Shown here piece after piece: positions 1 to 48,116 of a stretch of 64,000 nucleotides of DNA. The translations under genes and the position numbers were made by a program. The notes under the pieces were generated by a model. The model was given only the letters and a program-made list of their open reading frames with translations, made no database searches and was not told where the DNA came from. The stretch spans positions 98,959,522 to 99,023,521 of the forward strand of contig NC_134831.1 in NCBI RefSeq assembly GCF_004210375.1, read 5' to 3'. Within the stretch, counting starts at the first letter, position 1; each line of letters begins with the position of its first letter. Source of the stretch: Tachypleus tridentatus (Eukaryota).

Positions 1-3000
1 ATATATACCAAATACCTAGAGAGAGAGAGAGGTCTGTGCCTGACCCTCCTGGGTATACAAATATATATACCAAAAAATACCTGCAGAGAGAGAGAGGGGT
101 CTAGTGTACCTGACCCTCATGGGTATACAAAATATATACCAAATACCTAGAGAGAGAGCTGGCTAGTGTGCCTGACCCTCCTGGGTATACAAATATATAT
201 ACCACAAATACCTGAGAGAGAGAGAGGTCTAGTGTACCTGGACCCTCCTGGGTATACACAAATATATATACCAAATACCAGAGAGAGAGGTCAAAGTGTA
301 CCTGACCCTCTCATTGTATACATAATATATACCAAATACCTAGAGAGAGACAGAGGTCTAGTGTACCTGACCCTCCTGGGTATACAAATATATATACCAA
401 ATACCTAGAGAGAGAGAGAGAGAGGTTCTAGTGTACCTGACTCTCCTGATGGGTATACAAATATATATACCTTGATACAGAGAGAGAGAAGTCTAGTGTA
501 CCTGACCCTCCTGGGTATACAAATATATATACCATAAAACCTCAGAGAGAGAGAGAGGTCTAGTGTACCTGACCCTCCTGGGTGCTTCAAATGATATATA
601 TACCAAAAATACCAATAGAGAGAGAGAGGTCTAGTGTGCCTGACCCCTCCTGGGTATACAAATATATATGCCAAAATACCGATAGAGAGAGAGGTCCTAT
701 TGTACTTAACCCTCCTTGGTATACAAATATATATGCTACCAAATACATAGAGAGAGAGGTCTAGTGTACCTAACCCTCCTGGGTATACAAATGTATATAC
801 CAAATACCTAGAGAGAGAGAGGTCTAGTGTACCTGAGCCTCCTGGGTATACAAATATACCATACCAAATATCTAGAGAGAGAGAGAGGTTTAGTGTACCT
901 GATCCTCCTGGGTATACAAATATATATACTAAATACCTAGAGAGAGAGAGGTCTAATGTACCTGATCCTCCTGGGTATACAAATATATATACTAAATACC
1001 TAGAAAGAGAGAGAGAGAGAGGTCTAGTGTACCTAACCCTCCTCGGTATACAAATATATATACCAAATACATAAAGAGAGAGAGAGAGGTCTAGTTTACC
1101 TGACCCTCCTGGGTATACAAACATATATACCCAAATACCTAGAGAGAGAGAGAGGTCTAGTGTACCTCACCCTCCTGGGTATACAAATATATATACCAAA
1201 ATACCTAGAGAGAGAGAGCTCTAGTGTACCTGACCCTATTGGGTATACAAATATATATACCAAAATACCTAAAGAAAGAGAGACGTCTAGTGTACCTGAC
1301 CCTCCTAAGTATACAAATATATATACCCAAATACCTACAGAGAGAGAGGCATCCAGTGTACCTGACCCTCATGGGTATACAAATATATATACCAATATAC
1401 CTAGAGAGAGAGAGGTCTAGTGTACCTGACCCTCCAGAGTATACAAATATATATACCAAATACCTAGTAAGAAAGGTCTAGTGTACCTGACACTCCTGGG
1501 TATACAAATATATATACCAGATACATAGAGAGAGAGGGGTCCAGTGTACCTGACCCTACTGGGTATACAAATATATATACCAGATACATAGAGAGTGAAG
1601 TCCAATGTACCTGACCCTCCTGGGTATACAAATATATATACCAAATACCTAGAGAGAGAGAGGTCTAGTGTACCTGACCCTCCTGGGTATACAAATATAT
1701 ATACCAAAATACCTAGAGAGAGAGAGGTCTAGTGTACCTGACCCTCCTGGAGTATACAAATATATATACCAAATACCTAGAGAGAGAGGGGTCTAGTGTA
1801 CCTGACCCTCCTGGGTACACAAATATATATACCAAATACCTAGAGAAAGAGAGAGAGGTCTAGTGTACCGCACCCTCCTGGGTATACAAATATATATACC
1901 AAAACACCTAGAGAGAGAGAGAGGTCTAGTGTACCTGAACCTCCAGGGTATACAAATATATATACCAAATACCTAGATAGAGAGAGAGGTCTAGTGTACC
2001 TGACCCTCCTGGGTATACAAATATATATACCAAATACCTAGAGAGAGAGAGAGGTCTAGTGTACCTAGGGACCTGGGCACCTCCTCAGGGCAAATACAAA
2101 TATATATACCAAAATACCTAGAGAGAGAGGGTCTAGTGTACCTGAACCTCCTGGGTATACAAATATATATATCCAAATACCTAGAGAGAGAGGTCTAGTG
2201 TACCTGACCCTCCTGGGTATACAAATATATATACCCAAATACCTAGAGAGAGAGAGGTCTAGTGTACCTGACCCTCCAGGGTATACAAATATATATACCA
2301 AATACCTAGAGAGAGAGGTCTAGTGTACCTGACCCTCCTGGGTATACAAATATATATACCAAATACCTAGAGAGAGAGAGGTCTAGTGTACCTGACCCTC
2401 CTGGGTATACAAATATATATATACCAAAACATCTAGAGAGAGAGAGAGGTCTAGTGTACCTGACCCTCCTCGGTATACAAATATATATACCAAATACCTA
2501 AAGAGAGAGATCTAGTGTAGCTGACCCTCCTGGGTATACATATATATATACCAAATACCTAGAGAGAGAGAGGTCTAGTGTACCTGACCCTCCTGGGTAT
2601 ACAAATATATATACCAAAATACCTAGAGAGAGAGAGGGTCTAGTGTACCTGACCCTCCTGGGTATACAAATATATATACCAAAATACCTAGAGAGAGAGA
2701 GGTCTAGTGTACCTGACCCTCCTGGGTATACAAATATATATACCAAAATACCTATAGAGAGAGAGGTCTAGTGTACCTGACCCTCCTGGGTATACAAATA
2801 TATATACCAAATACTAGAGAGGAGAGAGAGAGAGGTCTAGTGTACCTGACCCTCCTGGGTATACAAATATATATACCAAATACCTAGAGAGAGAGAGGTC
2901 TAGTGTACCTGACCCTCCTGGGTATACAAATATATATACCAAATACCTAGAGAGAGAGAGGTCTAGTGTACCTGACCCTCCTGGGTATACAAATATATAT

Positions 3001-6000
3001 ACCAAATACCTAGAGAGAGAGAGAGGTCTAGTGTACCTGACAAATACCTCCTGGGTATACAAAATCATATATACCAAATACCTAGAGAGAGAGAGAGGTC
3101 TAGTGTACCTGACCCTCCTGGGTATACAAATATATATACCAAATACCTGAGAGAGAGAGAGAGGTCTAGTGTACCTGACCCTCCTGGGTATACAAATATA
3201 TATACCAAATACCTGAGAGAGAGAGAGAGGTCTAGTGTACCTGACCCTCCTGGGTATACAAATATATATACCAAATACCTAGAGAGAGAGAGTCTAGTGA
3301 CCCAACCCTCCTGGGTATACAAATATATATACCAAAATAGTGTACCTGACCCTCCTGGGTATACAAATATATATACCAAATACCTAGAGAGAGAGAGAGG
3401 TCTAGTGTACCTGACCCTCCTGGGTATACAAAATATATACCAAATACCTAGAGAGAGAGGTCTAGTGTACCTGACCCTCCTGGGTATACAAATATATATA
3501 CCAAATACCTAGAGAGAGAGAGGTCTAGTGTACCTGACCCTCCTGGGTATACAAATATATATACCAAATACCTAGAGAGAGAGAGAGGTCTAGTGTACCT
3601 GACCCTCCTGGGTATACAAATATATATACCAAATACCTAGAGAGAGAGAGAGGGTCTAGTGTACCTGACCCTCCTGGGTATACAAATATATATACCAAAA
3701 TACCTAGAGAGAGAGAGAGGTCTAGTGTACCTGACCCTCCTGGGTATACAAATATATATACCAAAATACCTAGAGAGAGAGAGGTCTAGTGTACCTGACC
3801 CTCCTGGGTATACAAATATATATACCCAAATACCTAGAGAGAGAGAGGTCTAGTGTACCTGACCCTCCTGGGTATACAAATATATATACCAAATACCTAG
3901 AGAGAGAGAGGTCTAGTGTACCTGACCCTCCTGGGTATACAAATATATATACCAAATACCTAGAGAGAGAGAGGTCTAGTGTACCTGACCCTCCTGGGTA
4001 TACAAATATATATATACCAAATACCTAGAGAGAGAGAGGTCTAGTGTACCTGACCCTCCTGGGTATACAAATATATATACCAAATACCTAGAGAGAGAGA
4101 GAGGTCTAGTGTACCTGACCCTCCTGGGTATACAAATATATATACCAAATACCTAGAGAGAGAGAGAGTGTACCTGACCTAGAGAGAGAGAGAGAAGGGG
4201 TCCTGGGTATACAAATATATATACCAAATACCTAGAGAGAGAGAGAGGTCTAGTGTACCTGACCCTCCTGGGTATACAAATATATATACCAAATACCTAG
4301 AGAGAGAGAGAGGTCTAGTGTACCTGACTCTCCTGAGTATACAAATATATATACCAAATACCTAGAGAGAGAGAGAGGTCTAGTGTACCTGACCCTCATG
4401 GGTATACAAATATATATACCAAATACATAGAGAGAGAGAAGTCTAGTGTACCTGACACTCCTGGGTATACAAATATATATACCATAAAACCTAGAGAGAG
4501 AGAGAGGTATAGTGTACCCAACCCTCCTGGGTATACAAATATATATACCAAAATACCGATAGAGAGAGAGAGGTCTAGTGTACCCGACCCTCCTGGGTAC
4601 ACAAATATATATACCAAATACCTAGAGAGAGAGGCCAAGTGTAGCTGACCCTCCTGGGTATACAAATATATATACCCAAATACCTAGAGAGAGAGAGGTC
4701 TAGTGTACCTGACCCTCCTGGGTATACAAATATATATACCAAATACCTAGAGAGAGAGGTCAAGTGTAGCTGACCCTCCTTGGTATACATACATATATAC
4801 CAAATACCTAGAGAGAGAGAGAGGTCTAGTGTACGTGACCCTCCTGGGTATACAAATATATATACCAAATACCTAGAGAGAGAGAGAGAGAGGTCTAGTG
4901 TACCTGACTCTCCTGAGTATACAAATATATATACCAAATACCTAGAGAGAGAGAGAGGTCTAGTGTACCTGACCCTCATGGGTTTTCAAATATATATACC
5001 AAATACCTAGAGAGAGAGAGAAGTCTAGTGTACCTGACCCTCCTGGGTATACAAATACATATACCATAAAACCTAGAGAGAGAGAGAGAGGTCTAGTGTA
5101 CCCGACCCTCCTGGGTATACAAATATATATACCAAAATACCAATAGAGAGAGAGAGGTCTAGTGTACCCGACCCTCCTGGGTATACAAATATATATACCA
5201 AAATTCCGATAGAGAGAGAGAGGTCTAGTGTACCCGACCCTCCTGGGTATACAAATATATATACCAAAATATCGATAGAGAGAGAGAGGTCTAATGTACC
5301 TGACCCTCCAGAGTATACAAATATATATACCAAATACCTAGTGAGAAAGGTCTAGTGTACCTGACCCTCCTCAGTATACAAATATATATACCAAATACCT
5401 AGACAGAGAGAGGTCTAGTGTACCTGACCCTCCTGGGTATACAAATATATATACCAAAACATCTTGAGAGAGAGAGGTCTAGTGTACCTGACCCTCCTGG
5501 GTATACAAATATATATACCAAATACCTAGAGAGTGAGAGGTCTAGTGTACCTGAGCCTCCTGGGTATACAAATATATATACCAAATACCTAGAGAGAGAG
5601 AGAGGTCTAGTGTTCCTGACCCTCATGGGTATACAAACAAATATTCCAAAATACCTAGAGAAAGAGAGGTCTAGTGTACCTGACCCTCCTGGGTATACAA
5701 ATATATATATCCAAATACCTAGAGAGAGAGAGAGAGGTCTAGTGTACCTAACCCTCCTGGGTAGACAAATATATACCAAAATACCTAGAGAGAGAGAGAG
5801 GTCTAGTGTACCTGACCTCCTGGGTATACAAATATATATACCAAATACCTAGAGAGAGAGAGAGGTCTAGTGTACCTGACCCTCCTGGGTATACAAATAT
5901 ATATACCAAAATACCCGAGAGAGAGAGAGGTCTAGTGTACCCGACCCTCCTGGGTATACAAATATATATACCAAAATACCGATAGAGAGAGAGAGGTCTA

Positions 6001-9000
6001 GTGTACCCGACCCTCCTGGGTATACAAATATATATACCAAATACCTAGAGAGAGAGAGGTCTAGTGTACCTGACCCTCCTGGGTATACAAATATATATAC
6101 CAAATACCTAGAGAGAGAGGTCAAGTGTAGCTGACCCTCCTTGGTATACATACATATATACCAAATACCTAGAGAGAGAGAGAGGTCTAGTGTACCTGAC
6201 CCTCCTGGGTATACAAATATATATACCATAAAACCTAGAGAGAGAGAGGTCTAGTGTACCCGACCCTCCTGGGTATACAAATATATATACCAAAATACCA
6301 ATAGAGAGAGAGAGAGGTCTAGTGTACCCGACCCTCCTGGGTATACAAATATATATACCAAAATACCGATAGAGAGAGAGAGGTCTAGTGTACCCGACCC
6401 TCCTGGGTATACAAATATATATACCAAATACCTAGAGAGAGAGAGGTCTAGTGTACCTGACCCTCCTGGGTATACAAATATATATACCAAATACCTAGAG
6501 AGTGAGAGGTCTAGTGTACCTGACCCTCCTGGGTATACAAATATATATACCAAATACCTAGAGAGAGAGAGGTCTAGTGTACCTGACCCTCCTGGGTATA
6601 CAAATATATATACCAAATACCTAGAGAGAGAGGTCAAGTGTACCTGACCCTCCTGGGTATACAATATATATATACCAAATACCTAGAGAGAGAGAGAGGT
6701 CTAGTGTACCTGACCCTCCTGGGTATACAAATATATATACCAAATACCTAGAGAGAGAGAGGTCTAGTGTACCTGACCCTCCTGGGTATACAAATATATA
6801 TACCAAAATACCTAGAGAGAGAGAGAGGTCTAGTGTACCTGACCCTCCTGGGTATACAAATATATATACCAAATACCTAGAGAGAGAGAGGTCTAGTGTA
6901 CCTGACCCTCCTGGGTATACACATATATATACCAAATACCTAGAGAGAGAGGCCAAGTGTACCTGACCCTCCTGGGTATACAAATATATATACCAAATAC
7001 CTAGAGAGAGAGAGAGGTCTAGTGTACCTGACCCTCCTGGGTATACAAATATATATACCAAATACCTAGAGAGAGAGAGAGGTCTAGTGTACCTGACCCT
7101 CCTGGGTATACAAATATATATACCAAATACCTAGAGAGAGAGAGAGGTCTAGTGTACCTGACCCTCCTGGGTATACAAATATATATACCAAATACATAGA
7201 GAGAGAGAAGTCTAGTGTACCTGACCCTCCTGGGTATACAAATATATATACCAAATACCTAGAGAGAGAGAGAGGTCTAGTGTACCTGACCCTCCTGGGT
7301 ATACAAATATATATACCAAATACCTAGAGAGAGAGAGGTCTAGTGTACCTGACCCTCCTGGGTATACAAATATATATACCAAATACCTAGAGAGAGAGGT
7401 CTAGTGTAGCTGACCCTCCTGGGTATACAAATATATATACCAAATACCTAGAGAGAGAGGTCTAGTGTACCTGACCCTCCTGGGTATACAAATATATATA
7501 CCAAATACCTAGAGAGAGAGAGGTCTAGTGTAGCTGACCCTCCTGGGTATACAAATATATATACCAAATACCTAGAGAGAGAGAGAGGTCTAGTGTACCT
7601 GACCCTCCTGGGTATACAAATATATATACCAAATACCTAGAGAGAGAGAGGTCTAGTGTACCTGACCCTCCTGGGTATACAAATATATATACCAAATACC
7701 TAGAGAGAGAGAGGTCTAGTGTACCTGACCCTCCTGGGTATACAAATATATATACCAAATACCTAGAGAGAGAGAGGTCTAGTGTACCTGACCCTCCTGG
7801 GTATACAAATATATATACCAAAATACCGAGAGAGAGAGAGGTCTAGTGTACCTGACCCTCCTGGTATACAAATATATATACCAAATACCTAGAGAGAGAG
7901 AAGGTCTAGTGTACCTGACCCTCCTGGGTATACAAATATATATACCCAAATACCTAGAGAGAGAGAGAGGTCTAGTGTACCTGACCCTCCTGGGTATACA
8001 AATATATATACCATAAAACCTAGAGAGAGAGAGAGGTCTAGTGTACCTGACCCTCCTGGGTATACAAATATATATACCAAATACCTAGAGAGAGAGAGGT
8101 CTAGTGTACCTGACCCTCCTGGGTATACAAATATATATACCAAATACCTAGAGAGAGAGAGGTCTAGTGTACCTGACCCTCCTGGGTATACAAATATATA
8201 TACCAAATACCTAGAGAGAGAGGTCTAGTGTACCTGACCCTCCTGGGTTTACAAATATATATACCAAATACCTAGAGAGAGAGAGAGTCTAGTGTACCTG
8301 ACCCTCCTGGGTATACAAATATATATACCATAAAACCTAGAGAGAGAGAGAGGTCTAGTGTACCTGACCCTCCTGGGTATACAAATATATATACCAAAAT
8401 ACCAATAGAGAGAGAGAGGTCTAGTGTACCTGACCCTCCTGGGTATACAAATATATATACCAAATACCGATAGAGAGAGAGAGGTCTAGTGTACCTGACC
8501 CTCCTGGGTATACAAATATATATACCAAAATACCGATAGAGAGAGAGAGGTCTAGTGTACCTGACCCTCCTGGGTATACAAATATATATACCAAATACCT
8601 AGAGAGAGAAGGTCTAGTGTACCTGACCTCTCCGGTATACAAATATATATACCAAATACCTAGACAGAGAGAGGTCTAGTGTACCTGACCCTCCTGGGTA
8701 TACAAATATATATACCAAAACATCTTGAGAGAGAGAGGTCTAGTGTACCTGACCCTCCTGGGTATACAAATATATATACCAAATACCTAGAGAGAGAGAG
8801 AGAGAGGTCTAGTGTACCTGAGCCTCCTGGGTATACAAATATATATACCAAATACCTAGAGAGAGAGAGAGGTCTAGTGTACCTGACCCTCCTGGGTATA
8901 CAAATATATATACCAAATACCTAGAGAGAGAGAGGTCTAGTGTACCTGACCCTCCTGGGTATACAAATATATATACCAAATACCTAGAGAGAGAGAGAGG

Positions 9001-12000
9001 TCTAGTGTACCTGACCCTCCTGGGTATACAAATATATATACCAAAATACCTAGAGAGAGAGAGGTCTAGTGTACCTGACCCTCCTGGGTATACAAATATA
9101 TATACCAAATACCTAGAGAGAGAGGTCTAGTGTACCTGACCCTCCTGGGTATACAAATATATATACCAAATACCGAGAGAGAGAGAGAGGTCTAGTGTAC
9201 CTGACCCTCCTGGGTATACAAATATATATACCAAATACCTAGAGAGAGAGAGGTCTAGTGTACCTGACCCTCCTGGGTATACAAATATATATACCAAATA
9301 CCTAGAGAGAGAGAGGTCTAGTGTACCTGACCCTCCTGGGTATACAAATATATATACCAAATACCTAGAGAGAGAGAGAGGTCTGGTGTACCTGACCCTC
9401 CTGGGTATACAAATATATATACCAAATACCTAGAGAGAGAGGTCTAGTGTACCTGACCCTCCTGGGTATACAAATATATATACCAAATACCTAGACAGAG
9501 AGAGGTCTAGTGTACCTGACCCTCCTGGGTATACAAATATATATACCCAAATACCTAGAGAGAGAGAGAGGTCTAGTGTACCTGACCCTCCTGGGTATAC
9601 AAATATATATACCAAATACCTAGAGAGAGAGAGAGGTCTAGTGTACCTGACCCTCCTGGGTATACAAATATATATACCAAATACCTAGAGAGAGAGAGAG
9701 GTCTAGTGTACCTGACCCTCCTGGGTATACAAATATATATACCAAAATACCAGAGAGAGAGAGGTCTAGTGTACCTGACCCTCCTGGGTATACAAATATA
9801 TATACCAAATACCTAGAGAGAGAGAGGTCTAGTGTACCTGACCCTCCTGGGTATACAAATATATATACCAAATACCTAGAGAGAGAGAGAGGTCTAGTGT
9901 ACCTGACCCTCCTGGGTATACAAATATATATACCAAATACCTAGAGAGAGAGAGGTCTAGTGTACCTGACCCTCCTGGGTATACAAATATATATACCAAA
10001 TACCTAGAGAGAGAGAGAGGTCTAGTGTACCTGACCCTCCTGGGTATACAAATATATATACCAAATACCTAGAGAGAGAGAGAGTGTACCTGACCCTCCT
10101 GGGTATACAAATATATATACCTAGAGAGAGAGAGAGGTCTAGTGACCCTCCTGGGTATACAAATATATATACCAAAATACCTAGAGAGAGAGAGGTCTAG
10201 TGTACCTGACCCTCCTGGGTATACAAATATATATACCAAATACCTAGAGAGAGAGAGGTCTAGTGTACCTGACCCTCCTGGGTATACAAATATATATACC
10301 AAATACCTAGAGAGAGAGAGGTCTAGTGTACCTGACTCTCCTGGGTATACAAATATATATACCAAATACCTAGAGAGAGAGAGAGGTCTAGTGTACCTGA
10401 CCCTCCTGGGTATACAAATATATATACCAAATACCTAGAGAGAGAGAGAGGTCTAGTGTACCTGACCCTCCTGGGTATACAAATATATATACCAAATACC
10501 TAGAGAGAGAGAGAGAGGTCTAGTGTACCTGACCCTCCTGGGTATACAAATATATATACCAAATACCAGAGAGAGAGAGAGGTCTAGTGTACCTGACCCT
10601 CCTGGGTATACAAATATATATACCAAATACCTAGAGAGAGAGAGGTCTAGTGTACCTGACCCTCCTGGGTATACAAATATATATACCAAATACCTAGAGA
10701 GAGAGAGAGGTCTAGTGTACCTGACCCTCCTGGGTATACAAATATATATACCAAAACATCTAGAGAGAGAGAGGTCTAGTGTACCTGATCCTCCTGGGTA
10801 TACAAATATATATACCAAAAACCTAGAGAGAGGTCTAGTATACCTGATCCTCCTGGGTATACAAATAAATATACCAAATACCTAGAGAGAGAGAGGTCTA
10901 GTGTACCTGACCCTCCTGGGTATACAAATATATATACCAAATACCTAGAGAGAGAGAGGTCTAGTGTACCTGACCCTCCTGGGTATACAAATATATATAC
11001 CAAATACCTAGAGAGAGAGAGGTCTAGTGTACCTGACCCTCCTGGGTATACAAATATATATACCAAATACCTAGAGAGAGAGAGGTCTAGTGTACCTGAC
11101 CCTCCTGGGTATACAAATATATATACCAAATACCTAGAGAGAGAGAGAGGTCTAGTGTACCTGACCCTCCTGGGTATACAAATATATATACCAAATACCT
11201 AGAGAGAGAGAGGTCTAGTGTACCTGACCCTCCTGGGTATACAAATATATATACCAAATACCTAGAGAGAGAGAGGTCTAGTGTACCTGACCCTCCTGGG
11301 TATACAAATATATATACCAAATACCTAGAGAGAGAGAGGTCTAGTGTACCTGACCCTCCTGGGTATACAAATATATATACCAAATACCTAGAGAGAGAGA
11401 GGTCTAGTGTACCTGACCCTCCTGGGTATACAAATATATATACCAAATACCTAGAGAGAGAGAGAGTCTAGTGTACCTGACCCTCCTGGGTATACAAATA
11501 TATATACCAAATACCTAGAGAGAGAGAGAGGTCTAGTGTACCTGACCCTCCTGGGTATACAAATATATATACCAAAATACCAATAGAGAGAGAGAGGTCT
11601 AGTGTACCTGACCCTCCTGGGTATACAAATATATATACCAAAATACCGAGAGAGAGAGAGAGGTCTAGTGTACCTGACCCTCCTGGGTATACAAATATAT
11701 ATACCAAATACCTAGAGAGAGAGAGGTCTAGTGTACCTGACCCTCCTGGGTATACAAATATATATACCAAATACCTAGAGAGAGAGAGGTCTAGTGTACC
11801 TGACCCTCCTGGGTATACAAATATATATACCAAATACCTAGAGAGAGAGAGGTCTAGTGTACCTGACCCTCCTGGGTATACAAATATATATACCAAATAC
11901 CTAGAGAGAGAGAGGTCTAGTGTACCTGACCCTCCTGGGTATACAAATATATATACCAAATACCTAGAGAGAGAGAGGTCTAGTGTACCTGACCCTCCTG

Positions 12001-21000: not shown

Positions 21001-24000
21001 GGGTATACAAATATATATACCAAATACCTAGAGAGAGAGAGAGAGGTCTAGTGTACCTGACCCTCCTGGGTATACAAATATATATACCAAAATACCATAT
21101 AGAGAGAGAGGTCTAGTGTACCTGACCCTCCTGGGTATACAAATATATATACCAAAATACCGATAGAGAGAGAGAGGTCTAGTGTACCCGACCCTCCTGG
21201 GTATACAAATATATATACCAAATACCTAGAGAGAGAGAGGTCTAGTGTACCTGACCCTCCTGGGTATACAAATATATATACCAAATACCTAGAGAGAGAG
21301 AGAGGTCTAGTGTACCTGACCCTCCTGGGTATACAAATATATATACCAAATACCTAGAGAGAGAGAGGTCTAGTGTACCTGACCCTCCTGGGTATACAAA
21401 TATATATACCAAATACCTAGAGAGAGAGAGAGGTCTAGTGTACCTGACCCTCCTGGGTATACAAATATATATACCAAATACCTAGAGAGAGAGAGGTCTA
21501 GTGTACCTGACCCTCCTGGGTATACAAATATATATACCAAATACCTAGAGAGAGAGGTCTAGTGTACCTGACCCTCCTGGGTATACAAATATATATACCA
21601 AATACCTAGAGAGAGAGAGGTCTAGTGTACCTGACCCTCCTGGGTATACAAATATATATACCAAATACCTAGAGAGAGAGAGGTCTAGTGTACCTGACCC
21701 TCCTGGGTATACAAATATATATACCAAATACCTAGAGAGAGAGAGAGGTCTAGTGTACCTGACCCTCCTGGGTATACAAATATATATACCAAATACCTAG
21801 AGAGAGAGAGGTCTAGTGTACCTGACCCTCCTGGGTATACAAATATATATACCAAAAAATACCTGACCCTCCTGGAGAGAGAGAGAGGTCTAGTGTACCT
21901 GACCCTCCTGGGTATACAAATATATATACCAAATACCTAGAGAGAGAGAGAGGTCTAGTGTACCTGACCCTCCTGGGTATACAAATATATATACCAAATA
22001 CCTAGAGAGAGAGAGGTCTAGTGTACCTGACCCTCCTGGGTATACAAATATATATACCAAATACCTAGAGAGAGAGAGGTCTAGTGTACCTGACCCTCCT
22101 GGGTATACAAATATATATACCAAATACCTAGAGAGAGAGAGGTCTAGTGTACCTGACCCTCCTGGGTATACAAATATATATACCAAATACCTAGAGAGAG
22201 AGAGGTCTAGTGTACCTGACCCTCCTGGGTATACAAATATATATACCAAATACCTAGAGAGAGAGAGGTCTAGTGTACCTGACCCTCCTGGGTATACAAA
22301 TATATATACCAAATACCTAGAGAGAGAGAGGTCTAGTGTACCTGACCCTCCTGGGTATACAAATATATATACCAAATACCTAGAGAGAGAGAGGTCTAGT
22401 GTACCTGACCCTCCTGGGTATACAAATATATATACCAAATACCTGACCCTCCTGGGTATACAAATATATATACCAAATAGAGAGAGAGAGGTCTAGTGTA
22501 CCTGACCCTCCTGGGTATACAAATATATATACCAAATACCTAGAGAGAGAGAGAGGTCTAGTGTACCTGACCCTCCTGGGTATACAAATATATATACCAA
22601 ATACCTAAAGAGAGAGGTCTAGTGTAGCTGACCCTCCTGGGTATACAAATATATATACCAAATACCTAGAGAGAGAGAGAGAGGTCTAGTGTACCTGACC
22701 CTCCTGGGTATACAAATATATATACCAAATACCTAGAGAGAGAGAGGTCTAGTGTACCTGACCCTCCTGGGTATACAAATATATATACCAAATACCTAGA
22801 GAGAGAGAGAGGTCTAGTGTACCTGACCCTCCTGGGTATACAAATATATATACCAAATACCTAGAGAGAGAGAGAGAGGTCTAGTGTACCTGACCCTCCT
22901 GGGTATACAAATATATATACCAAATACCTAGAGAGAGAGAGGTCTAGTGTACCTGACCCTCCTGGGTATACAAATATATATACCAAATACCTAGAGAGAG
23001 AGAGAGGTCTAGTGTACCTGACCCTCCTGGGTATACAAATATATATACCAAATACCTAGAGAGAGAGAGAGAGGTCTAGTGTACCTGACCCTCCTGGGTA
23101 TACAAATATATATACCAAATACCTAGAGAGAGAGAGAGGTCTAGTGTACCTGACCCTCCTGGGTATACAAATATATATACCAAATACCTAGAGAGAGAGA
23201 GAGGTCTAGTGTACCTGACCCTCCTGGGTATACAAATATATATACCAAATACCTAGAGAGAGAGAGGTCTAGTGTACCTGACCCTCCTGGGTATACAAAT
23301 ATATATACCAAATACCTAGAGAGAGAGAGGTCTAGTGTACCTGAGCCTCCTGGGTATACAAATATATATACCCAAATACCTAGAGAGAGAGAGAGAGGTC
23401 TAGTGTACCTGACCCTCCTGGGTATACAAATATATATACCAAATACCTAGAGAGAGAGAGGTCTAGTGTACCTGACCCTCCTGGGTATACAAATATATAT
23501 ACCAAATACCTAGAGAGAGAGAGAGGTCTAGTGTACCTGACCCTCCTGGGTATACAAATATATATACCAAATACCTAGAGAGAGAGAGAGGTCTAGTGTA
23601 CCTGACCCTCCTGGGTATACAAATATATATACCAAATACCTAGAGAGAGAGAGGTCTAGTGTACCTGACCCTCCTGGGTATACAAATATATATACCAAAT
23701 ACCTAGAGAGAGAGAGAGGTCTAGTGTACCTGACCCTCCTGGGTATACAAATATATATACCAAATACCTAGAGAGAGAGAGGTCTAGTGTACCTGACCCT
23801 CCTGGGTATACAAATATATATACCAAATACCTAGAGAGAGAGAGGTCTAGTGTACCTGACCCTCCTGGGTATACAAATATATATACCAAATACCTAGAGA
23901 GAGAGGTCTAGTGTACCTGAGAGAGAGAGAGGTCTAGTGTACCTGACCCTCCTGGGTATACAAATATATATACCAAATACCTAGAGAGAGAGAGGTCTAG

Positions 24001-27000
24001 TGTACCTGACCCTCCTGGGTATACAAATATATATACCAAATACCTAGAGAGAGAGAGAGGTCTAGTGTACCTGACCCTCCTGGGTATACAAATATATATA
24101 CCAAATACCTAGAGAGAGAGAGAGGTCTAGTGTACCTGACCCTCCTGGGTATACAAATATATATACCAAATACCTAGAGAGAGAGAGAGGTCTAGTGTAC
24201 CTGACCCTCCTGGGTATACAAATATATATACCAAATACCTAGAGAGAGAGAGGTCTAGTGTACCTGACCCTCCTGGGTATACAAATATATATACCAAAAT
24301 ATAGAGAGAGAGAGAGGTCTAGTGTACCTGACCCTCCTGGGTATACAAATATATATACAAAATACCTAGAGAGAGAGAGAGGTCTAGTGTACCTGACCCT
24401 CCTGGGTATACAAATATATATACCCAAATACCTAGAGAGAGAGAGGTCTAGTGTACCTGACCCTCCTGGGTATACAAATATATATACCAAATACCCAGAG
24501 AGAGAGAGGTCTAGTGTACCTGACCCTCCTGGGTATACAAATATATATACCAAATACCTAGAGAGAGAGAGGTCTAGTGTACCTGACTCTCCTGAGTATA
24601 CAAATATATATACCAAATACCTAGAGAGAGAGAGAGGTCTAGTGTACCTGACCCTCCTGGGTATACAAATATATATACCAAATACCTAGAGAGAGAGAGA
24701 GAGGTCTAGTGTACCTGACCCTCCTGGGTATACAAATATATATACCAAATACCTAGAGAGAGAGAGAGGTCTAGTGTACCTGACCCTCCTGGGTATACAA
24801 ATATATATACCAAAATACCTAGAGAGAGAGAGGTCTAGTGTACCTGACCCTCCTGGGTATACAAATATATATATCCAAATACCTAGAGAGAGAGAGAGGT
24901 CTAGTGTACCTGACCCTCCTGGGTATACAAATATATATACCAAATACCTAGAGAGAGAGAGAGGTCTAGTGTACCTGACCCTCCTGGGTATACAAATATA
25001 TATACCAAATACCTAGAGAGAGAGAGGTCTAGTGTACCTGACCCTCCTGGGTATACAAATATATATACCAAATACCTAGAGAGAGAGAGAGGTCTAGTGT
25101 ACCTGACCCTCCTGGGTATACAAATATATATACCAAATACCTAGAGAGAGAGAGGTCTAGTGTACCTGACCCTCCTGGGTATACAAATATATATACCAAA
25201 TACCTAGAGAGAGAGAGGTCTAGTGTACCTGACCCTCCTGGGTATACAAATATATATACCAAATACCTAGAGAGAGAGAGGTCTAGTGTACCTGACCCTC
25301 CTGGGTATACAAATATATATACCAAATACCTAGAGAGAGAGAGAGGTCTAGTGTACCTGACCCTCCTGGGTATACAAATATATATACCAAATACCTAGAG
25401 AGAGAGAGAGAGGTCTAGTGTACCTGACCCTCCTGGGTATACAAATATATATACCAAATACCTAGAGAGAGAGAGGTCTAGTGTACCTGACCCTCCTGGG
25501 TATACAAATATATATACCAAAATACCTAGTGTACCTGACCCTCCTGGGTATACAAATATATATACCAAAGAGAGAGAGGTCTAGTGTACCTGACCCTCCT
25601 GGGTATACAAATATATATACCAAATACCTAGAGAGAGAGAGAGGTCTAGTGTACCTGACCCTCCTGGGTATACAAATATATATACCAAATACCTAGAGAG
25701 AGAGAGGTCTAGTGTACCTGACCCTCCTGGGTATACAAATATATATACCAAATACCTAGAGAGAGAGAGGTCTAGTGTACCTGACCCTCCTGGGTATACA
25801 AATATATATACCAAATACCTAGAGAGAGAGAGGTCTAGTGTACCTGACCCTCCTGGGTATACAAATATATATACCAAATACCTAGAGAGAGAGAGAGGTC
25901 TAGTGTACCTGACCCTCCTGGGTATACAAATATATATACCATAAAACCTAGAGAGAGAGAGAGGTCTAGTGTACCTAACCCTCCTCGGTATACAAATATA
26001 TATACCAAATACCTAGAGAGAGAGAGGTCTAGTGTACCTGACCCTCCTGGGTATACAAATATATATACCAAATACCTAGAGAGAGAGAGGTCTAGTGTAC
26101 CTGACCCTCCTGGGTATACAAATATATATACCAAATACCTAGAGAGAGAGAGAGGTCTAGTGTACCTGACCCTCCTGGGTATACAAATATATATACCAAA
26201 TACCTAGAGAGAGAGAGGTCTAGTGTACCTGACCCTCCTGGGTATACAAATATATATACCAAATACCTAGAGAGAGAGAGAGGTCTAGTGTACCTGACCC
26301 TCCTGGGTATACAAATATATATACCAAATACCTAGAGAGAGAGAGAGTCTAGTGTACCTGACCCTCCTGGGTATACAAATATATATACCAAATACATAAA
26401 GAGAGAGAGAGGTCTAGTTTACCTGACCCTCCTGGGTATACAAACATATATACCCAAATACCTAGAGAGAGAGAGAGGTCTAGTGTACCTGACCCTCCTG
26501 GGTATACAAATATATATACCAAAATACCTAGAGAGAGAGAGGTCTAGTGTACCTGACCCTCCTGGGTATACAAATATATATACCAAATACCTAGAGAGAG
26601 AGAGGTCTAGTGTACCTGACCCTCCTGGGTATACAAATATATATACCAAATACCTAGAGAGAGAGAGAGGTCTAGTGTACCTGACCCTCCTGGGTATACA
26701 AATATATATACCAAATACCTGACCCTCCTGGGAGAGAGAGAGGTCTAGTGTACCTGACCCTCCTGGGTATACAAATATATATACCAAATACCTAGAGAGA
26801 GAGAGAGACAGAGAGGTCTAGTGTACCTGACCCTCCTGAGTATACAAATATATATACCAAATACCTAGAGAGAGAGAGGTCTAGTGTACCTGACCCTCCT
26901 GGGTATACAAATATATATACCAAATACCTAGAGAGAGAGAGGTCTAGTGTACCTGACCCTCCTGGGTATACAAATATATATACCAAATACCTAGAGAGAG

Positions 27001-30000
27001 AGAGAGGTCTAGTGTACCTGACCCTCCTGGGTATACAAATATATATACCAAATACCTAGAGAGAGAGAGGTCTAGTGTACCTGACCCTCCTGGGTATACA
27101 AATATATATACCAAATACCTAGAGAGAGAGAGAGGTCTAGTGTACCTGACCCTCCTGGGTATACAAATATATATACCAAAATACCTAGAGAGAGAGAGGT
27201 CTAGTGTACCTGACCCTCCTGGGTATACAAATATATATACCAAAATACCTAGATAGAGAGAGAGAGGTCTAGTGTACCTGACCCTCCTGGGTATACAAAT
27301 ATATATACCAAATACCTAGAGAGAGAGGTCTAGTGTACCTGACCCTCCTGGGTATACAAATATATATACCAAATACCTAGAGAGAGAGAGAGGTCTAGTG
27401 TACCTGACCCTCCTGGGTATACAAATATATATACCAAATACCTAGAGAGAGAGAGGTCTAGTGTACCTGACCCTCCTGGGTATACAAATATATATACCAA
27501 ATACCTAGAGAGAGAGAGGTCTAGTGTACCTGACCCTCCTGGGTATACAAATATATATACCAAATACCTAGAGAGAGAGAGGTCTAGTGTACCTGACCCT
27601 CCTGGGTATACAAATATATATACCAAATACCTAGAGAGAGAGAGGTCTAGTGTACCTGACCCTCCTGGGTATACAAATATATATACCAAAATACCTAGTG
27701 AGAGAGAGAGAGAGGTCTAGTGTACCTGACCCTCCTGGGTATACAAATATATATACCAAATAGGTCTAGTGTACCTGACCCTCCTGGGAGAGAGAGAGGT
27801 CTAGTGTACCTGACCCTCCTGGGTATACAAATATATATACCAAATACCTAGAGAGAGAGAGGTCTAGTGTACCTGACCCTCCTGGGTATACAAATATATA
27901 TACCAAATACCTAGAGAGAGAGAGGTCTAGTGTACCTGACCCTCCTGGGTATACAAATATATATACCAAATACCTAGAGAGAGAGAGGTCTAGTGTACCT
28001 GACCCTCCTGGGTATACAAATATATATACCAAATACCTAGAGAGAGAGAGGTCTAGTGTACCTGACCCTCCTGGGTATACAAATATATATACCAAATACC
28101 TAGAGAGAGAGAGGTCTAGTGTACCTGACCCTCCTGGGTATACAAATATATATACCAAATACCTAGAGAGAGAGAGGTCTAGTGTACCTGACCCTCCTGG
28201 GTATACAAATATATATACCAAATACCTAGAGAGAGAGAGAGGTCTAGTGTACCTGACCCTCCTGGGTATACAAAATATATACCCAAATACCTAGAGAGAG
28301 AGAGGTCTAGTGTACCTGACCCTCCTGGGTATACAAATATATATACCAAATACCTAGAGAGAGAGAGGTCTAGTGTACCTGACCCTCCTGGGTATACAAA
28401 TATATATACCAAATACCTAGAGAGAGAGAGGTCTAGTGTACCTGACCCTCCTGGGTATACAAATATATATACCAAATACCTAGAGAGAGAGAGAGGTCTA
28501 GTGTACCTGACCCTCCTGGGTATACAAATATATATACCAAATACCTAGAGAGAGAGAGGTCTAGTGTACCTGACCCTCCTGGGTATACAAATATATATAC
28601 CAAATACCTAGAGAGAGAGAGGTCTAGTGTACCTGACCCTCCTGGGTATACAAATATATATACCAAATACCTAGAGAGAGAGAGAGGTCTAGTGTACCTG
28701 ACCCTCCTGGGTATACAAATATATATACCAAATACCTAGAGAGAGAGAGAGGTCTAGTGTACCTGACCCTCCTGGGTATACAAATATATATACCAAAATA
28801 CCTCCTGGGTATACAAATATATATAGAGAGAGAGAGGTCTAGTGTACCTGACCCTCCTGGGTATACAAATATATATACCAAATACCTAGAGAGAGAGAGG
28901 TCTAGTGTACCTGACCCTCCTGGGTATACAAATATATATACCCAAATACCTAGAGAGAGAGAGAGGTCTAGTGTACCTGACCCTCCTGGGTATACAAATA
29001 TATATACCCAAATACCTAGAGAGAGAGAGAGAGGTCTAGTGTACCTGACCCTCCTGGGTATACAAATATATATACCAAATACCTAGAGAGAGAGAGAGGT
29101 CTAGTGTACCTGACCCTCCTGGGTATACAAATATATATACCAAATACCTAGAGAGAGAGAGGTCTAGTGTAGGTCTGACCCTCCTGGGTATACAAATATA
29201 TATACCAAATACCTAGAGAGAGAGAGGTCTAGTGTACCTGACCCTCCTGGGTATACAAATATATATACCAAATACCTAGAGAGAGAGAGAGGTCTAGTGT
29301 ACCTGACCCTCCTGGGTATACAAATATATATACCAAATACCTAGAGAGAGAGAGAGGTCTAGTGTACCTGACCCTCCTGGGTATACAAATATATATACCA
29401 AATACCTAGAGAGAGAGAGGTCTAGTGTACCTGACCCTCCTGGGTATACAAATATATATACCAAATACCTAGAGAGAGAGAGAGGTCTAGTGTACCTGAC
29501 CCTCCTGGGTATACAAATATATATACCAAATACCTAGACAGAGAGAGGTCTAGTGTACCTGACCCTCCTGGGTATACAAATATATATACCAAATACCTAG
29601 AGAGTGAGAGGTCTAGTGTACCTGACCCTCCTGGGTATACAAATATATATACCCAAATACCTAGAGAGAGAGAGGTCTAGTGTACCTGACCCTCCTGGGT
29701 ATACAAATATATATACCAAATACCTAGAGAGAGAGGTCAAGTGTAGCTGACCCTCCTGGGAGAGAGAGAGAGGTCTAGTGTACCTGACCCTCCTGGGTAT
29801 ACAAATATATATACCAAATACCTAGAGAGAGAGAGAGGTCTAGTGTACCTGACCCTCCTGGGTATACAAATATATATACCAAATACCTAGAGAGAGAGAG
29901 GTCTAGTGTACCTGACCCTCCTGGGTATACAAATATATATACCAAATACCTAGAGAGAGAGAGAGGTCTAGTGTACCTGACCCTCCTGGGTATACAAATA

Positions 30001-33000
30001 TATATACCAAATACCTAGAGAGAGAGAGGTCTAGTGTACCTGACCCTCCTGGGTATACAAATATATATACCAAATACCTAGAGAGAGAGAGGTCTAGTGT
30101 AGCTGACCCTCCTGGGTATACAAATATATATACCAAATACCTAGAGAGAGAGAGAGAGGTCTAGTGTACCTGACCCTCCTGGGTATACAAATATATATAC
30201 CAAATACCTAGAGAGAGAGAGGTCTAGTGTACCTGACCCTCCTGGGTATACAAATATATATACCAAATACCTAGAGAGAGAGAGAGGTCTAGTGTACCTG
30301 ACCCTCCTGGGTATACAAATATATATACCAAATACCTAGAGAGAGAGAGGTCTAGTGTACCTGACCCTCCTGGGTATACAAATATATATACCAAATACCT
30401 AGAGAGAGAGAGAGGTCTAGTGTACCTGACCCTCCTGGGTATACAAATATATATACCAAATACCTAGAGAGAGAGAGGTCTAGTGTACCTGACCCTCCTG
30501 GGTATACAAATATATATACCAAATACCTAGAGAGAGAGAGAGGTCTAGTGTACCTGACCCTCCTGGGTATACAAATATATATACCAAATACCATAGAGAG
30601 AGAGAGGTCTAGTGTACCTGACCCTCCTGGGTATACAAATATATATACCAAAATACCTAGATAGAGAGAGAGAGGTCTAGTGTACCTGACCCTCCTGGGT
30701 ATACAAATATATATACCAAAATACCAATAGAGAGAGAGAGGTCTAGTGTACCCGACCCTCCTGGGTATACAAATATATATACCAAAATACCGATAGAGAG
30801 AGAGAGGTCTAGTGTACCTGACCCTCCTGGGTATACAAATATATATACCAAATACCTAGAGAGAGAGAGGTCTAGTGTACCTGACCCTCCTGGGTATACA
30901 AATATATATACCAAATACCTAGAGAGAGAGGTCTAGTGTACCTGACCCTCCTGGGTATACAAATATATATACCAAATACCTAGAGAGAGAGAGGTCTAGT
31001 GTAGCTGACCCTCCTTGGTAAACATATATATATACCAAATACCTAGACAGAGAGAGGTCTAGTGTACCTGACCCTCCTGGGTATACAAATATATATACCA
31101 AAACATCTAGAGAGAGAGAGGTCTAGTGTACCTGACCCTCCTGGGTATACAAATATATATACCAAATACCTAGAGAGTGAGAGGTCTAGTGTACCTGAGC
31201 CTCCTGGGTATACAAATATATATACCCAAATACCTAGAGAGAGAGAGGTCTAGTGTACCTGACCCTCCTGGGTATACAAATATATATACCAAATACCTAG
31301 AGAGAGAGAGGTCTAGTGTACCTGACCCTCCTGGGTATACAAATATATATACCAAATACCTAGAGAGAGAGAGGTCTAGTGTACCTGACCCTCCTGGGTA
31401 TACAAATATATATACCAAATACCTAGAGAGAGAGAGAGGTCTAGTGTACCTGACCCTCCTGGGTATACAAATATATATCCCAAATACCTAGAGAGAGAGA
31501 GAAGTCTAGTGTACCCAACCCTCCTGGGTATACAAATATATATACCAAATACCTAGAGAGAGAGAGGTCTAGTGTACCTGAGTGTACCCTCCTGGGTATA
31601 CAAATATATATACCAAATACCTAGAGAGAGAGAGAGGTCTAGTGTACCTGACTCTCCTGAGTATACAAATATATATACCAAATACCTAGAGAGAGAGAGG
31701 TCTAGTGTACCTGACCCTCCTGGGTATACAAATATATATACCAAAATACCTAGAGAGAGAGAGAGGTCTGGTGTACCTGACCCTCCTGGGTATACAAATA
31801 TATATACCAAATACCTAGAGAGAGAGAGGTCTAGTGTACCTGACCCTCCTGGGTATACAAATATATATACCAAATACCTAGAGAGAGAGAGGTCTAGTGT
31901 ACCTGACCCTCCTGGGTATACAAATATATATACCAAAATACCTAGAGAGAGAGAGGTCTAGTGTACCTGACCCTCCTGGGTATACAAATATATATACCCA
32001 AATACCTAGAGAGAGAGAGGTCTAGTGTACCTGACCCTCCTGGGTATACAAATATATATACCAAATACCTAGAGAGAGAGGTCAAGTGTAGCTGACCCTC
32101 CTTGGTATACATACATATATACCAAATACCTAGAGAGAGAGAGAGGTCTGGTGTACCTGACCCTCCTGGGTATACAAATATATATACCAAATACCTAGAG
32201 AGAGAGAGAGGTCTAGTGTACCTGACCCTCCTGGGTATACAAATATATATACCAAAATACCTAGAGAGAGAGAGAGGTCTAGTGTACCTGACCCTCCTGG
32301 GTATACAAATATATATACCAAAATACCGATAGAGAGAGAGAGGTCTAGTGTACCCGACCCTCCTGGGTATACAAATATATATACCAAAATACCGATAGAG
32401 AGAGAGAGGTCTAGTGTACCCGACCCTCCTGGGTATACAAATATATATACCAAAATACTGATAGAGAGAGAGAGGTCTAGTGTACCCGACCCTCCTGGGT
32501 ATACAAATATATATACCAAGATACCGATAGAGAGAGAGAGGTCTAGTGTACCTAACCCTCCTGGGTATATAAATATATATACCAAATACCTAGAAAGTGA
32601 GGTCTAGTGTACCTGACCCTCCTGGGTATACAAATATATATACCATAAAACCTAGAGAGAGAGAGAGGTCTAGTGTACCCGACCCTCCTGGGTATACAAA
32701 TATATATACCAAAATACCGATAGAGAGAGAGGGGTCTAGTGTACCCGACCCTCCTGGGTATACAAATATATATACCAAATACCTAGAGAGAGAGGTCTAG
32801 TGTACCTGACCCTCCTGGGTATACAAATATATATACCAAATACCTAGAGAGAGAGGTCAAGTGTAGCTGACCCTCCTGGGTATACAAATATATATACCAA
32901 ATACCTAGAGAGAGAGAGAGGTCTAGTGTACCTGACCCTCCTGGGTATACAAATATATATACCAAATACCTAGAGAGAGAGAGAAGTCTAGTGTACCTGA

Positions 33001-33436
33001 CCCTCATGGGTATACAAATATATATACCAAATACCTAGAGAGAGAGAAGTCTAGTGTACCTGACCCTCCTGGGTATACAAATATATATACCATAAAACCT
33101 AGAGAGAGAGAGAGGTCTAGTGTACCCGACCCTCCTGGGTATACAAATATATATACCAAAATACCGAGAGAGAGAGAGGTCTAGTGTACCCGACCCTCCT
33201 GGGTATACAAATATATATACCAAAATACCGATAGAGAGAGAGAGGTCTAGTGTACCCGACCCTCCTGGGTATACAAATATATATACCAAAATACCGATAG
33301 AGAGAGAGAGGTCTAGTGTACCTAACCCTCCTGGGTATATAAATATATATACCAAATACCTAGAAAGTGAGGTCTAGTGCACCTGACCCTCCTGGGTATA
33401 CAAATATATATACCCAAACACCTAGAGAGAGAGAGA
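1..33436. repeat. Tandem satellite array, unit ~61-63 bp (consensus approx GGTCTAGTGTACCTGACCCTCCTGGGTATACAAATATATATACCAAATACCTAGAGAGAGAGA), ~540 head-to-tail copies; truncated by the window start and ending abruptly at ~33436
   Basis: Direct reading: the TACCTAG landmark recurs every 59-65 nt throughout (for example at 2881, 2944, 3007). Unit length varies mainly through the internal (GA)n tract (4-9 repeats) and the (TA)n tract. All units share one orientation. The last unit is cut after its (GA)n at 33436, followed by unique sequence gtgtttgttgaagatc. Confidence 0.97.
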
Positions 33437-34120
33437 GAGGTGTTTGTTGAAGATCTGCAATTTTTCTGGTGTGACCAATTATATGAAGCATAGCAAACCC
33501 ATCAATCAACAAGAAGAACATGAGGTTTCCACTGATGGTGTGGCCAATCATAACTCAGTTGATATTTGTCCAATTTGATAATAACCGTAAGTTGAAATTG
33601 TCATTTCTCATCATATACTAAATTCTTTACAAGTTTCACAAAAATCAGAAAATCCTGCATTTTTTACATTTGATCCCTGCTACGGAGGTGCTTCCGGTTG
33701 AGAGAAAGTTAGATCATGTGTTAACAACAACAGAAGATATTGATTATTTACTATACACTCATGTCATTTCTTCTCAAGCTCATATCAATCCACTTCAGAT
33801 TTACCAATCAAGTGAACAACTTCATTCATTGTATTAACTAACTGAAATGATGAGCCTTGTGTGCTCAATCATAGTTAACGTTCTGCATGAAATGCATTGT
33901 CTCATTAATAGGGCTACTTAAACATATTTAGCTGTCCACATATTTTGTAATGAGCTTCTATGCATTTAAATGTAACAATAAAATTTCATACAGCTGGTAA
34001 TATCATTTTTAATAAATAGAACTAACTTAACATAGTGTTGAAACACTTAAGGATGGCAAAGTATTGAAATTTTTTTCACATTTAAGCAAAAAGTTATAAT
34101 TTTCATGTACTGAAAATATA

Positions 34121-47801: not shown

Positions 47802-48116
47802 TGTAACACAGGAGATGTCAGTGGGAGATATTGATAACGCTAATGCTTGAACACAAATGACTAAATTTCGTTACGTGTTTACAGATTAACGCTTCGTTTC
47901 TGTACGGTTTTAAACGTTTGACCAGCTAGTATTTAGGCTAATTTTATAGTGTTTACATTTTCCGTATTAAATGCTAAAAAGTTTTTTAATTTTATTTTCC
48001 TTTTCTTATTTTCATCTTTCGAAGCTCTACTCAAATAAGTGGTTCAGTCTAACAACGCAAAATGCGTATTTTTTCTTTATATTCATTGGCCTTTAGATTT
48101 TGGCCAGCAGTGAACA

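Follow-up and report, generated by a model that had tools for sequence, protein, structure and literature searches.

Genes and repeats at the locus

The window, by which we mean the whole analyzed stretch of 64,000 nucleotides, began within a tandem array of at least 33 kb, which was followed by unique DNA, the first coding exon of a major vault protein homologue and, ca. 24 kb from the array, two spliced exons of a myosin-I tail with intact splice signals (Table 1). The vault exon was identified by its match to the major vault protein chains in the PDB (E = 4e-12), where it aligned to the extreme N-terminus. An exhaustive search with this exon returned 196 homologues at E ≤ 0.001, with an identity of at most 71%, and a word-indexed search with it returned no match. 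The exon lies 3.5 kb from the array and is transcribed in the direction of the array. Further vault protein exons were not detected in the window with a human MVP probe, nor when the search was repeated with database proteins, and no further myosin exons were detectable in the window.

Between the vault exon and the myosin-I exons, the flank contained six minisatellites and the remnants of transposable elements (TEs), including a Tc1/Tc3-type element, four tRNA-derived SINE copies and a long-inverted-repeat element, which bore out the initial annotation of a transposon-rich neighborhood. The best matches of the Tc1/Tc3-type transposase were only 72% identical and included fish and amphipod proteins. 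The SINE may be the abundant horseshoe-crab element, and a literature search with SINE fragments found no paper. The six minisatellites were of an ordinary kind. An origin of the array from the flank or from these other minisatellites was considered and rejected, as no similarity was found, including to an unrelated array of 11 copies of a 63-bp unit at 57,840.

Table 1. Coordinates of the array, its domains and the neighboring features in the window.
Feature	Position	Strand	Description
Satellite array, 523 units	1–33441	+	Tandem Repeats Finder and wrap-around alignment; cut by the window start
Most diverged block	1–2600	+	Core pairwise identity 0.894; 5% exact-consensus units; divergence climbs toward position 1; holds the disrupted unit
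Internal old block A	4201–6300	+	Core identity 0.930; 4312–5667 is one copy of the 21-unit segmental duplication
Homogenized domain 1	6301–14800	+	Core identity 0.982; 47% exact-consensus units
Internal old block B	14801–18100	+	Core identity 0.92; 16177–16817 and 17330–18036 are the second duplicate copy, with 8 extra units between
Homogenized domain 2	18101–31000	+	Core identity 0.984; 66% exact-consensus units; includes partial/compound units
Diverged right edge	31001–33441	+	Core identity 0.919; enriched in CpG-bearing variants GTACCCGACC and ACCGATAGAG
Unique DNA between array and vault exon	33442–36941	-	Strongly CpG-depleted (CpG o/e 0.16); would form the beginning of intron 1 in an intact gene
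Weak inverted repeat	34223–34362 / 35576–35715		Inside 33442–36941
First coding exon, major vault protein homologue	36942–37096	-	ATG at 37096; 52 codons; AG/GTAAAG donor

Unit structure and mosaic organization of the array

The array was recovered by Tandem Repeats Finder in a single call (1–33,435; period 63, 521.5 copies, 91% matches, score 36,715), while wrap-around alignment to the consensus counted 523 head-to-tail units, rather than the ~540 of the initial annotation, and placed the array end at ~33,441. These results upheld the earlier description of a long, uninterrupted array in one orientation that is cut by the window start. All 523 units shared the same orientation, and because the longest was only 87 nt, the array contained no foreign insert and no interspersed unique sequence. 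The left end is the window boundary and not a demonstrated array end, and the length of at least 33 kb is a lower bound; at the right junction, the sequence showed that the array ends inside a (GA)n run.

The unit consensus was GGTCTAGTGTACCTGACCCTCCTGGGTATACAAATATATATACCAAATACCT(AG)5-7A, in a phase of our choice, and the monomer can be described as a unique 51-nt core, which includes the AT-rich stretch TATATATA, joined to a (GA)5-7 microsatellite. Unit length ranged from 61 to 67 nt, with modes at 63 nt (184 units) and 65 nt (117 units), which revised the earlier value of 61–63 bp. Most of this variation arose because the internal (GA)n run varies, with lengths of 9, 11, 13 and 15 being the commonest. 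The exact consensus was carried by 215 units, as a 63-mer (135) or a 65-mer (80), and 191 distinct unit strings were present. The disrupted unit previously placed at 2041–2100 was real, and was found to occupy 2053–2129 with a length of 77 nt.

Divergence along the array did not describe a homogenized core with ragged edges. Instead, the array was a mosaic of two homogenized domains (6.3–14.8 and 18.1–31 kb), with ~98% core identity (98.2–98.4%), and four diverged blocks (1–2.6, 4.2–6.3, 14.8–18.1 and 31–33.4 kb), with 89–93% core identity. The initial annotation had described a nearly identical interior at about 18–30 kb between more diverged ends. Our per-unit comparison with the consensus agreed that divergence is non-uniform, that both ends are more diverged and that units at 18–31 kb are near-identical, but the pattern was not confined to the edges, as the blocks at 4.2–6.3 kb (0.93) and 14.8–18.1 kb (0.92) matched the right edge and a second homogenized domain at 6.3–14.8 kb had been missed. 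Judged solely from divergence, the homogenized domains would be young and the diverged blocks old. CpG density was 0.6–1.4 per kb in the young domains versus 6–7 per kb in the old blocks, and the old blocks had derived variants in common (column 14 T>C, column 12 C>G, column 24 G>T and column 33 A>T). Around 20 partial or compound units lay inside the homogenized core. The pentamer TACCT, which occurs twice per unit, was the junction site in several of the partial or compound units of domain 2, three of which had such junctions at 21810, 22439 and 26669.

Within one internal old block, a run of 21 units had a second copy 12 kb away, at a distance of 186–194 units. Because everything in the array aligns at 90–95%, BLAST self-alignment was uninformative, and the duplicated block was detected by counting shared derived variants. 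All or nearly all of the derived variants in the duplicated stretch of block A were also present in block B. Identity was 98.6% between 4312–4956 and 16177–16817 and between 5020–5667 and 17330–18036, whereas shifted or unrelated controls reached 90–93%. The duplicate therefore represents direct evidence of long-register unequal exchange, and it supports the earlier proposal of ongoing homogenization by unequal exchange or conversion.

A mechanism consistent with these observations is one in which out-of-register recombination, by unequal exchange between sister chromatids or homologues and by gene conversion, probably both enlarges and homogenizes the array. One CpG-free variant, the 63/65-mer, may have recently spread through 6.3–14.8 and 18.1–31 kb, and this spread would have bypassed older diverged blocks, which persist at the right end, at the left end cut by the window and in two places within the array. 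The length classes, which differ by ±2 bp and are interspersed almost randomly, would reflect replication slippage in the (GA)n run, and the partial and compound units could have arisen when the two TACCT pentamers within the unit recombined with each other. The array is a clean, fully resolved satellite mosaic, and models of unequal exchange could draw on its two young domains, its stranded old blocks and its duplicated block.

Class of the repeat and its chromosomal setting

The array is real and is very probably an ordinary non-coding satellite DNA family of an animal genome. It is a long, one-orientation tandem array of a single monomer, it is non-coding, and its units evolve in concert; no observation in our study contradicted this reading. 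Similar to classical satellites such as primate alpha satellite, it runs head to tail in one orientation for tens of kb, with a near-identical interior, units that are more diverged toward the ends, and duplicated blocks as a sign of unequal exchange. The array-end model of a homogenized interior with diverged ends is said to have been described by Smith in 1976, Stephan in 1989 and McAllister and Werren in 1999. Unlike classical satellites, the array has a 63-bp monomer that is not nucleosome-sized, no higher-order repeat, diverged blocks that are also internal and a gene-bearing flank. Its unit length falls in the range of minisatellites and VNTRs (10–100 bp), and its length polymorphism comes from an internal microsatellite; however, those arrays typically span 0.5–30 kb, and the present one exceeds 33 kb and 520 copies, with a satellite-like domain structure.

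The initial annotation had named the array a megasatellite. This term does not fit. The units of megasatellites and macrosatellites exceed about 135 bp and can reach several kb, with motifs of 135–417 bp in Candida glabrata and kb-sized units in human RS447 and D4Z4. The unit of the array, at 63 bp (61–67), is non-coding and falls below the monomer size of that class, and the only likeness is the large tandem array.

A higher-order repeat was considered, as Tandem Repeats Finder also gave a period of 128, but core identity was flat against lag, with no peak at any lag. Unit-length autocorrelation was ~0 (0.08 at lag 1), and diagonals of exact units were only chance runs; we therefore rejected a higher-order repeat. 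A hairpin or dyad symmetry in the unit (GGTATA...TATACC) was rejected as well, as DNA folding was no better than for shuffles (z = -0.4 to -1.5).

Exact 38-mer scans of viral contigs and environmental metagenomes gave 0 matches to the 63-mer satellite, a result that says little about animal genomes, and a full-text literature search with unit fragments found no paper. No sequence-specific function could be demonstrated for the array, and neutral or selfish tandem DNA is the most suitable description of it, though the array could conceivably act as a chromatin boundary, a regulator of transcripts or a centromere. Satellite arrays are routine in animal genomes, and as a satellite array alone it would be of little significance.

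A location in centromeric, pericentromeric or subtelomeric heterochromatin, as the initial annotation suggested, is unlikely. A homogenized array of at least 33 kb with diverged edges would suit such a location, as would the TE remnants and six other minisatellites in the 30-kb flank and the CpG depletion of the local non-coding DNA. However, conserved host genes with intact splice signals lie 3.5 kb and ~24 kb away, no telomere-type repeat adjoins the array, and the 63-bp monomer shows no dyad symmetry above that of shuffles; higher-order repeats and dyad symmetry, features that are frequent though not universal in centromeric satellites, were both absent. If the SINE is indeed a horseshoe-crab element, the candidate centromeres of Limulus also argue against this location, as they are Gypsy-dominated and without tandem arrays (PMC11836539). 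Positive evidence for such a placement did not emerge from the window, and the conserved genes within 3.5 kb illustrate that a large array accompanied by transposons does not imply a centromere.

We regard it as quite improbable that the array was created, wholly or for much of its length, by an error of assembly, either as an over-expanded or as a mis-joined repeat. Assemblies are notoriously error-prone in satellite arrays, and the lack of partner exons for the vault exon in the window would likewise follow from a mis-join at the array. Against this, there were 191 distinct unit strings, the variant domains were structured, and the two copies of the duplicated block differed by ~1.4% in addition to an insertion of 8 units. 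Exact internal repeats did not exceed 457 nt, and the variation therefore looks natural and not assembler-made. Together, the unit diversity, structured domains, diverged duplicate and short exact repeats indicated real sequence evolution and not looped or copied paths of an assembly graph.

Amplification of an internal tandem repeat of a TE, such as a satellite borne by a Helitron, MITE or foldback element, has a very low probability. The several TE-associated features and other minisatellites in the flank pointed to a genome prone to such arrays, but the 30.6-kb flank contained no copy of the unit, whether full or partial, the unit did not resemble the five tandem-repeat consensus units compared (39, 46, 63, 75 and 54 bp), and the junction at 33,441 carried no terminal repeats or TE coding remnants. 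Coding of a repetitive protein by the array can be virtually dismissed. In its favor, 63 bp corresponds to 21 codons, and ORFs reaching 392 aa extend along series of 63-bp units on the minus strand. However, each unit of 61, 64, 65 or 66 nt interrupts the frame, the majority of the units differ from 63 nt in length, array ORFs are present on both strands, the exact ORF is not on record, and the translated repeat had 0 matches and no homologue among 5.8 billion proteins.

A candidate intronic position

The satellite may fill intron 1 of a functional major vault protein gene, a reading that we put forward tentatively from the position of exon 1 and judge somewhat less probable than its negation. 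In agreement with it, the ATG and the GT donor are intact, the donor is located at a conserved exon boundary, and CpG o/e is 1.2 in the exon versus 0.16–0.3 around it. Against this reading, the exon carries three substitutions at sites that 91% or more of the homologues conserve, and no downstream exon is visible within the window. The vault exon is alternatively a possible relic of a duplicated gene, or the product of a possible mis-join at the array.

A comparable arrangement was described in the Drosophila Y-linked fertility genes kl-3 and kl-5, which reportedly contain gigantic introns filled with satellite DNA (PMC6508621). Both cases involve a tandem satellite with a strongly purine/pyrimidine-biased strand, which here is possibly intronic and transcribed through. 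The Drosophila introns span megabases of simple 5–7-mers, versus at least 33 kb of a 63-mer here, and belong to Y-linked testis genes, versus a broadly conserved vault protein gene, whose exon 1 suggests the intronic position here. If the array is truly intronic, satellite-containing giant introns would extend beyond the Y-linked genes of Drosophila, and the locus would provide a non-Drosophila, autosomal-type, satellite-filled giant intron in a conserved gene of housekeeping type.

An intronic position would also require each transcript to traverse a CU-rich unit more than 520 times over. Read in the sense of the vault gene, each unit carries a textbook acceptor-like site of the form (Y)≥10-YAG/G, with 411 such sites and 2,133 CUCUCU motifs counted, and the unit lacked both a GTRAGT donor and a CTRAY branch-point consensus. 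If intronic, the array would be a natural system in which to study how the spliceosome passes over decoy 3' splice sites by the hundred, which are perhaps masked, for example by polypyrimidine-tract-binding proteins.

Extent and mosaic structure of the array

The best-supported reading of the array is that of an ordinary satellite DNA family lying in gene-bearing DNA, its units probably kept alike and renewed through unequal exchange, conversion, and slippage. The window opens inside the array, and Tandem Repeats Finder followed it over 1-33,435 (period 63, 521.5 copies, 91% matches, 4% indels, score 36,715). Units were cut out with a wrap-around dynamic programme against the cyclic consensus of the array, the phase of which was our choice; this alignment yielded 523 units and placed the array end at ~33,441. 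The large one-monomer array of the initial annotation was thereby borne out, with its count of ~540 units corrected; its unit length of 61-63 bp gave way to modal lengths of 63 and 65 nt, its disrupted unit was real (2053-2129), and its label "megasatellite" was wrong for a 63-bp unit.

Unit lengths were 63 nt (n = 184), 65 (n = 117), 66 (n = 64), 64 (n = 48), 61 (n = 41), and 67 (n = 21). The consensus was GGTCTAGTGTACCTGACCCTCCTGGGTATACAAATATATATACCAAATACCT followed by (AG)nA, and most of the length variation arose because this terminal purine run varied, being mostly 11 nt (254 units) or 13 nt (149 units). Among 191 distinct unit strings, the exact 63-mer consensus occurred in 135 units and the exact 65-mer in 80. 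No unit exceeded 87 nt, and therefore the array held no foreign insert; its longest exact internal repeat was only 457 nt, so that it does not resemble an assembler-made copy. GC content was steady at 0.40-0.42 with an A-rich skew, dropping to ~0.30 in the flank (the 30.6 kb to the right), and the array stopped within a (GA)n run at ~33,441, giving way to unique AT-rich DNA.

Scoring of divergence from the consensus in 1-kb bins, and of pairwise identity per domain in the 51-nt core outside the (GA)n microsatellite, showed that the array is a mosaic of diverged and near-identical domains (see table). Both margins were more diverged, as first proposed, with divergence climbing toward the right end and, on the left, toward the window start, but two internal blocks were just as diverged, so it was not a matter of edges alone. 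The old blocks (1-2.6, 4.2-6.3, 14.8-18.1, and 31-33.4 kb) had in common derived states that were rare elsewhere in the array (consensus columns 14 T>C, 12 C>G, 24 G>T, and 33 A>T). Their CpG density was 6-7 per kb, most of it contributed by the variants GTACCCGACC and ACCGATAGAG, whereas the young, homogenised domains (6.3-14.8 and 18.1-31 kb) had almost none (0.6-1.4 per kb). This contrast would fit a methylated genome in which a deaminated (TpG) derivative was amplified; non-coding DNA of the flank (33442-64000) was CpG-depleted (observed/expected, o/e, 0.16-0.46), which implies that cytosines of the source genome are methylated in the germline.

Evidence of exchange within the array

Shared derived states counted along diagonals revealed a second copy of units 67-76 (4312-4956) at units 253-262 (16177-16817) and one of units 77-87 (4957-5667) at units 271-281 (17330-18036), the halves of the second copy being set apart by eight extra units. 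Nearly all variants were common to both copies, and identity was 98.6% in each tested pair (4312-4956 vs 16177-16817; 5020-5667 vs 17393-18036), as against 90-93% for one-unit-shifted or unrelated partners. This is a segmental duplication of ~1.36 kb spanning ~12 kb inside the array, and therefore direct evidence of long-register unequal exchange or conversion; the homogenisation mechanism proposed earlier from the near-identity of units is now documented by it. Several partial or compound units in the homogeneous domains (21810, 22439, and 26669) had junctions at TACCT, a pentamer found twice per unit, which suggests microhomology-mediated deletion or duplication.

The array has no higher-order repeat, core identity being flat (0.963-0.965) from lag 1 to lag 100 and the lengths of neighboring units uncorrelated (0.08 at lag 1); a period-128 row from Tandem Repeats Finder was simply 63 + 65. 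A coding repeat was dismissed, as open reading frames of up to 392 aa occurred where several 63-nt units followed one another, on both strands, and were broken by every unit of another length; a protein search gave no homologue of the consensus peptide, and a protein look-up no exact record of the array frame. The apparent palindrome GGTATA...TATACC folded no better in unit or dimer than dinucleotide shuffles (z = -0.7, -0.4, -1.5). The flank held no full or partial copy of the unit, and the other tandem-repeat units compared, another 63-bp one included, were unrelated to it. The absence of copies from metagenome and viral contigs, which are not eukaryotic genome collections, and of a match in the literature is weak evidence.

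Mobile elements and minisatellites of the flank

Domains of the array and features of the flank (window positions; identity, core pairwise identity; exact, exact-consensus units)
Feature	Position	Strand	Description
Array domain	1-2,600		identity 0.894; exact 5%
Array domain	2,601-4,200		identity 0.964; exact 40%
Array domain	4,201-6,300		identity 0.930; exact 3%
Array domain	6,301-14,800		identity 0.982; exact 47%
Array domain	14,801-18,100		identity 0.922; exact 2%
Array domain	18,101-31,000		identity 0.984; exact 66%
Array domain	31,001-33,445		identity 0.919; exact 13%
Major vault protein homologue, first coding exon	36942-37096	minus	ATG, 52 codons, AG/GTAAAG donor
Long inverted-arm element	38104-40626		arms ~0.5-0.6 kb, 86-94% complementary; core ~1.3 kb
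Tandem repeat	41458-41732		39 bp x 7
tRNA-derived SINE	45142-45340	minus	
tRNA-derived SINE	45709-45970	minus	
Degenerate Tc1/Tc3-type DNA transposon	46537-48112		terminal inverted repeats ~230 bp
tRNA-derived SINE	48117-48392	minus	in Tc1/Tc3-type transposon terminus
tRNA-derived SINE	50299-50561	plus	head 50308-50367 scores as tRNA in Rfam
ORF fragment	52083-52223	plus	reverse-transcriptase-like YVDD motif, no Pfam support; near pogo remnant
Pogo-type DDE_1 remnant, weak	52657-52791	minus	E = 0.004
Tandem repeat	53995-54938		46 bp x 20.5, 98% identical
Tandem repeat	55919-56073		75 bp x 2
Myosin-I tail exons	59046-59207, 57374-57445	minus	continuous match when joined, E = 2.3e-12, to the myosin-Ic TH1 tail (PDB 4r8g)
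Tandem repeat	63887-64000		54 bp x 2.1, cut by window end

The reconstructed Tc1/Tc3-type transposase matched Tc1-like proteins (E = 4e-165; best match 72% identical, named matches from fish and amphipod) and was readable over three frames, with stop codons and frameshifts. A target-site duplication of 15 bp, GGCCAGCAGTGAACA, bounded the SINE in its terminus (48102-48116 and 48393-48407); this SINE family may be the abundant one of horseshoe crabs. The inverted-arm element resembles a foldback or long-TIR transposon and sits ~1 kb upstream of the ATG of the vault-protein gene. Tandem Repeats Finder reported six further minisatellites besides the array; those at 41458, 53995, 55919, and 63887 were unrelated, and the minisatellite density over 30 kb was striking. 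The intron between the myosin exons contained a 63 bp x 11 minisatellite (57840-58552) and a 123 bp x 2.2 repeat (57629-57900).

Conserved exons and a possible satellite-filled intron

The two exons, from the tail of an unconventional myosin-I, were consecutive, with canonical splice sites. The vault peptide aligned to solved structures of major vault protein at their very N-terminus (E = 4e-12), and 196 homologues fell within E <= 0.001. A placement in centromeric, pericentromeric, or subtelomeric heterochromatin, as suggested earlier, found no positive support and squares poorly with the presence of conserved spliced genes 3.5 and ~24 kb from the array. If the SINE is indeed a horseshoe-crab element, a comparison with Limulus would apply, whose published candidate centromeres are dominated by Gypsy elements, with no tandem arrays seen in them (PMC11836539).

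Genomic read-through fragments of the vault homologues part ways just past the same ...NE(R/K), and the donor therefore lies at a conserved exon boundary, ruling out a processed pseudogene. CpG o/e was 1.2 in the exon, compared with 0.16 in the 3.5 kb between array and exon and 0.3-0.46 in the remaining flank, with no CpG island around the exon; a value so high against depleted surroundings suggests coding constraint, now or recently. Counting against this, the substitutions P22T, T44N, and D49N fell at sites where at least 91% of homologues agree, a deviation matched in size by only 5 of 153.

The gene is aimed into the array, and no further vault-protein exon was detectable across the whole window, including the 3.5 kb of unique DNA before the array, in a search with a human MVP probe and its repeat with database proteins. 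With exon 1 facing the array and no second exon in that unique DNA, an intact gene would have a first intron of at least 37 kb, at least 33 kb of it satellite. That the array fills this intron is possible, though we would not call it probable; the exon may instead be a relic left by a duplicated gene, or the assembly may be mis-joined at the array. In the gene's sense (minus strand), the unit reads TCTCTCTCTCTAG/GTATTTGG...CAG/GTACAC..., and each unit bears an acceptor-like (TC)n-TAG/G motif. On that strand, the array (1-33441) contained neither GTRAGT nor CTRAY, the latter occurring at ~4 per kb in the flanks, together with 2,133 CTCTCT motifs and 411 acceptor-like sites (at least 10 pyrimidines, then YAG/G). 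The closest precedent for an intronic array would be in Drosophila, where the Y-linked genes kl-3 and kl-5 have giant introns filled with satellite DNA (PMC6508621).
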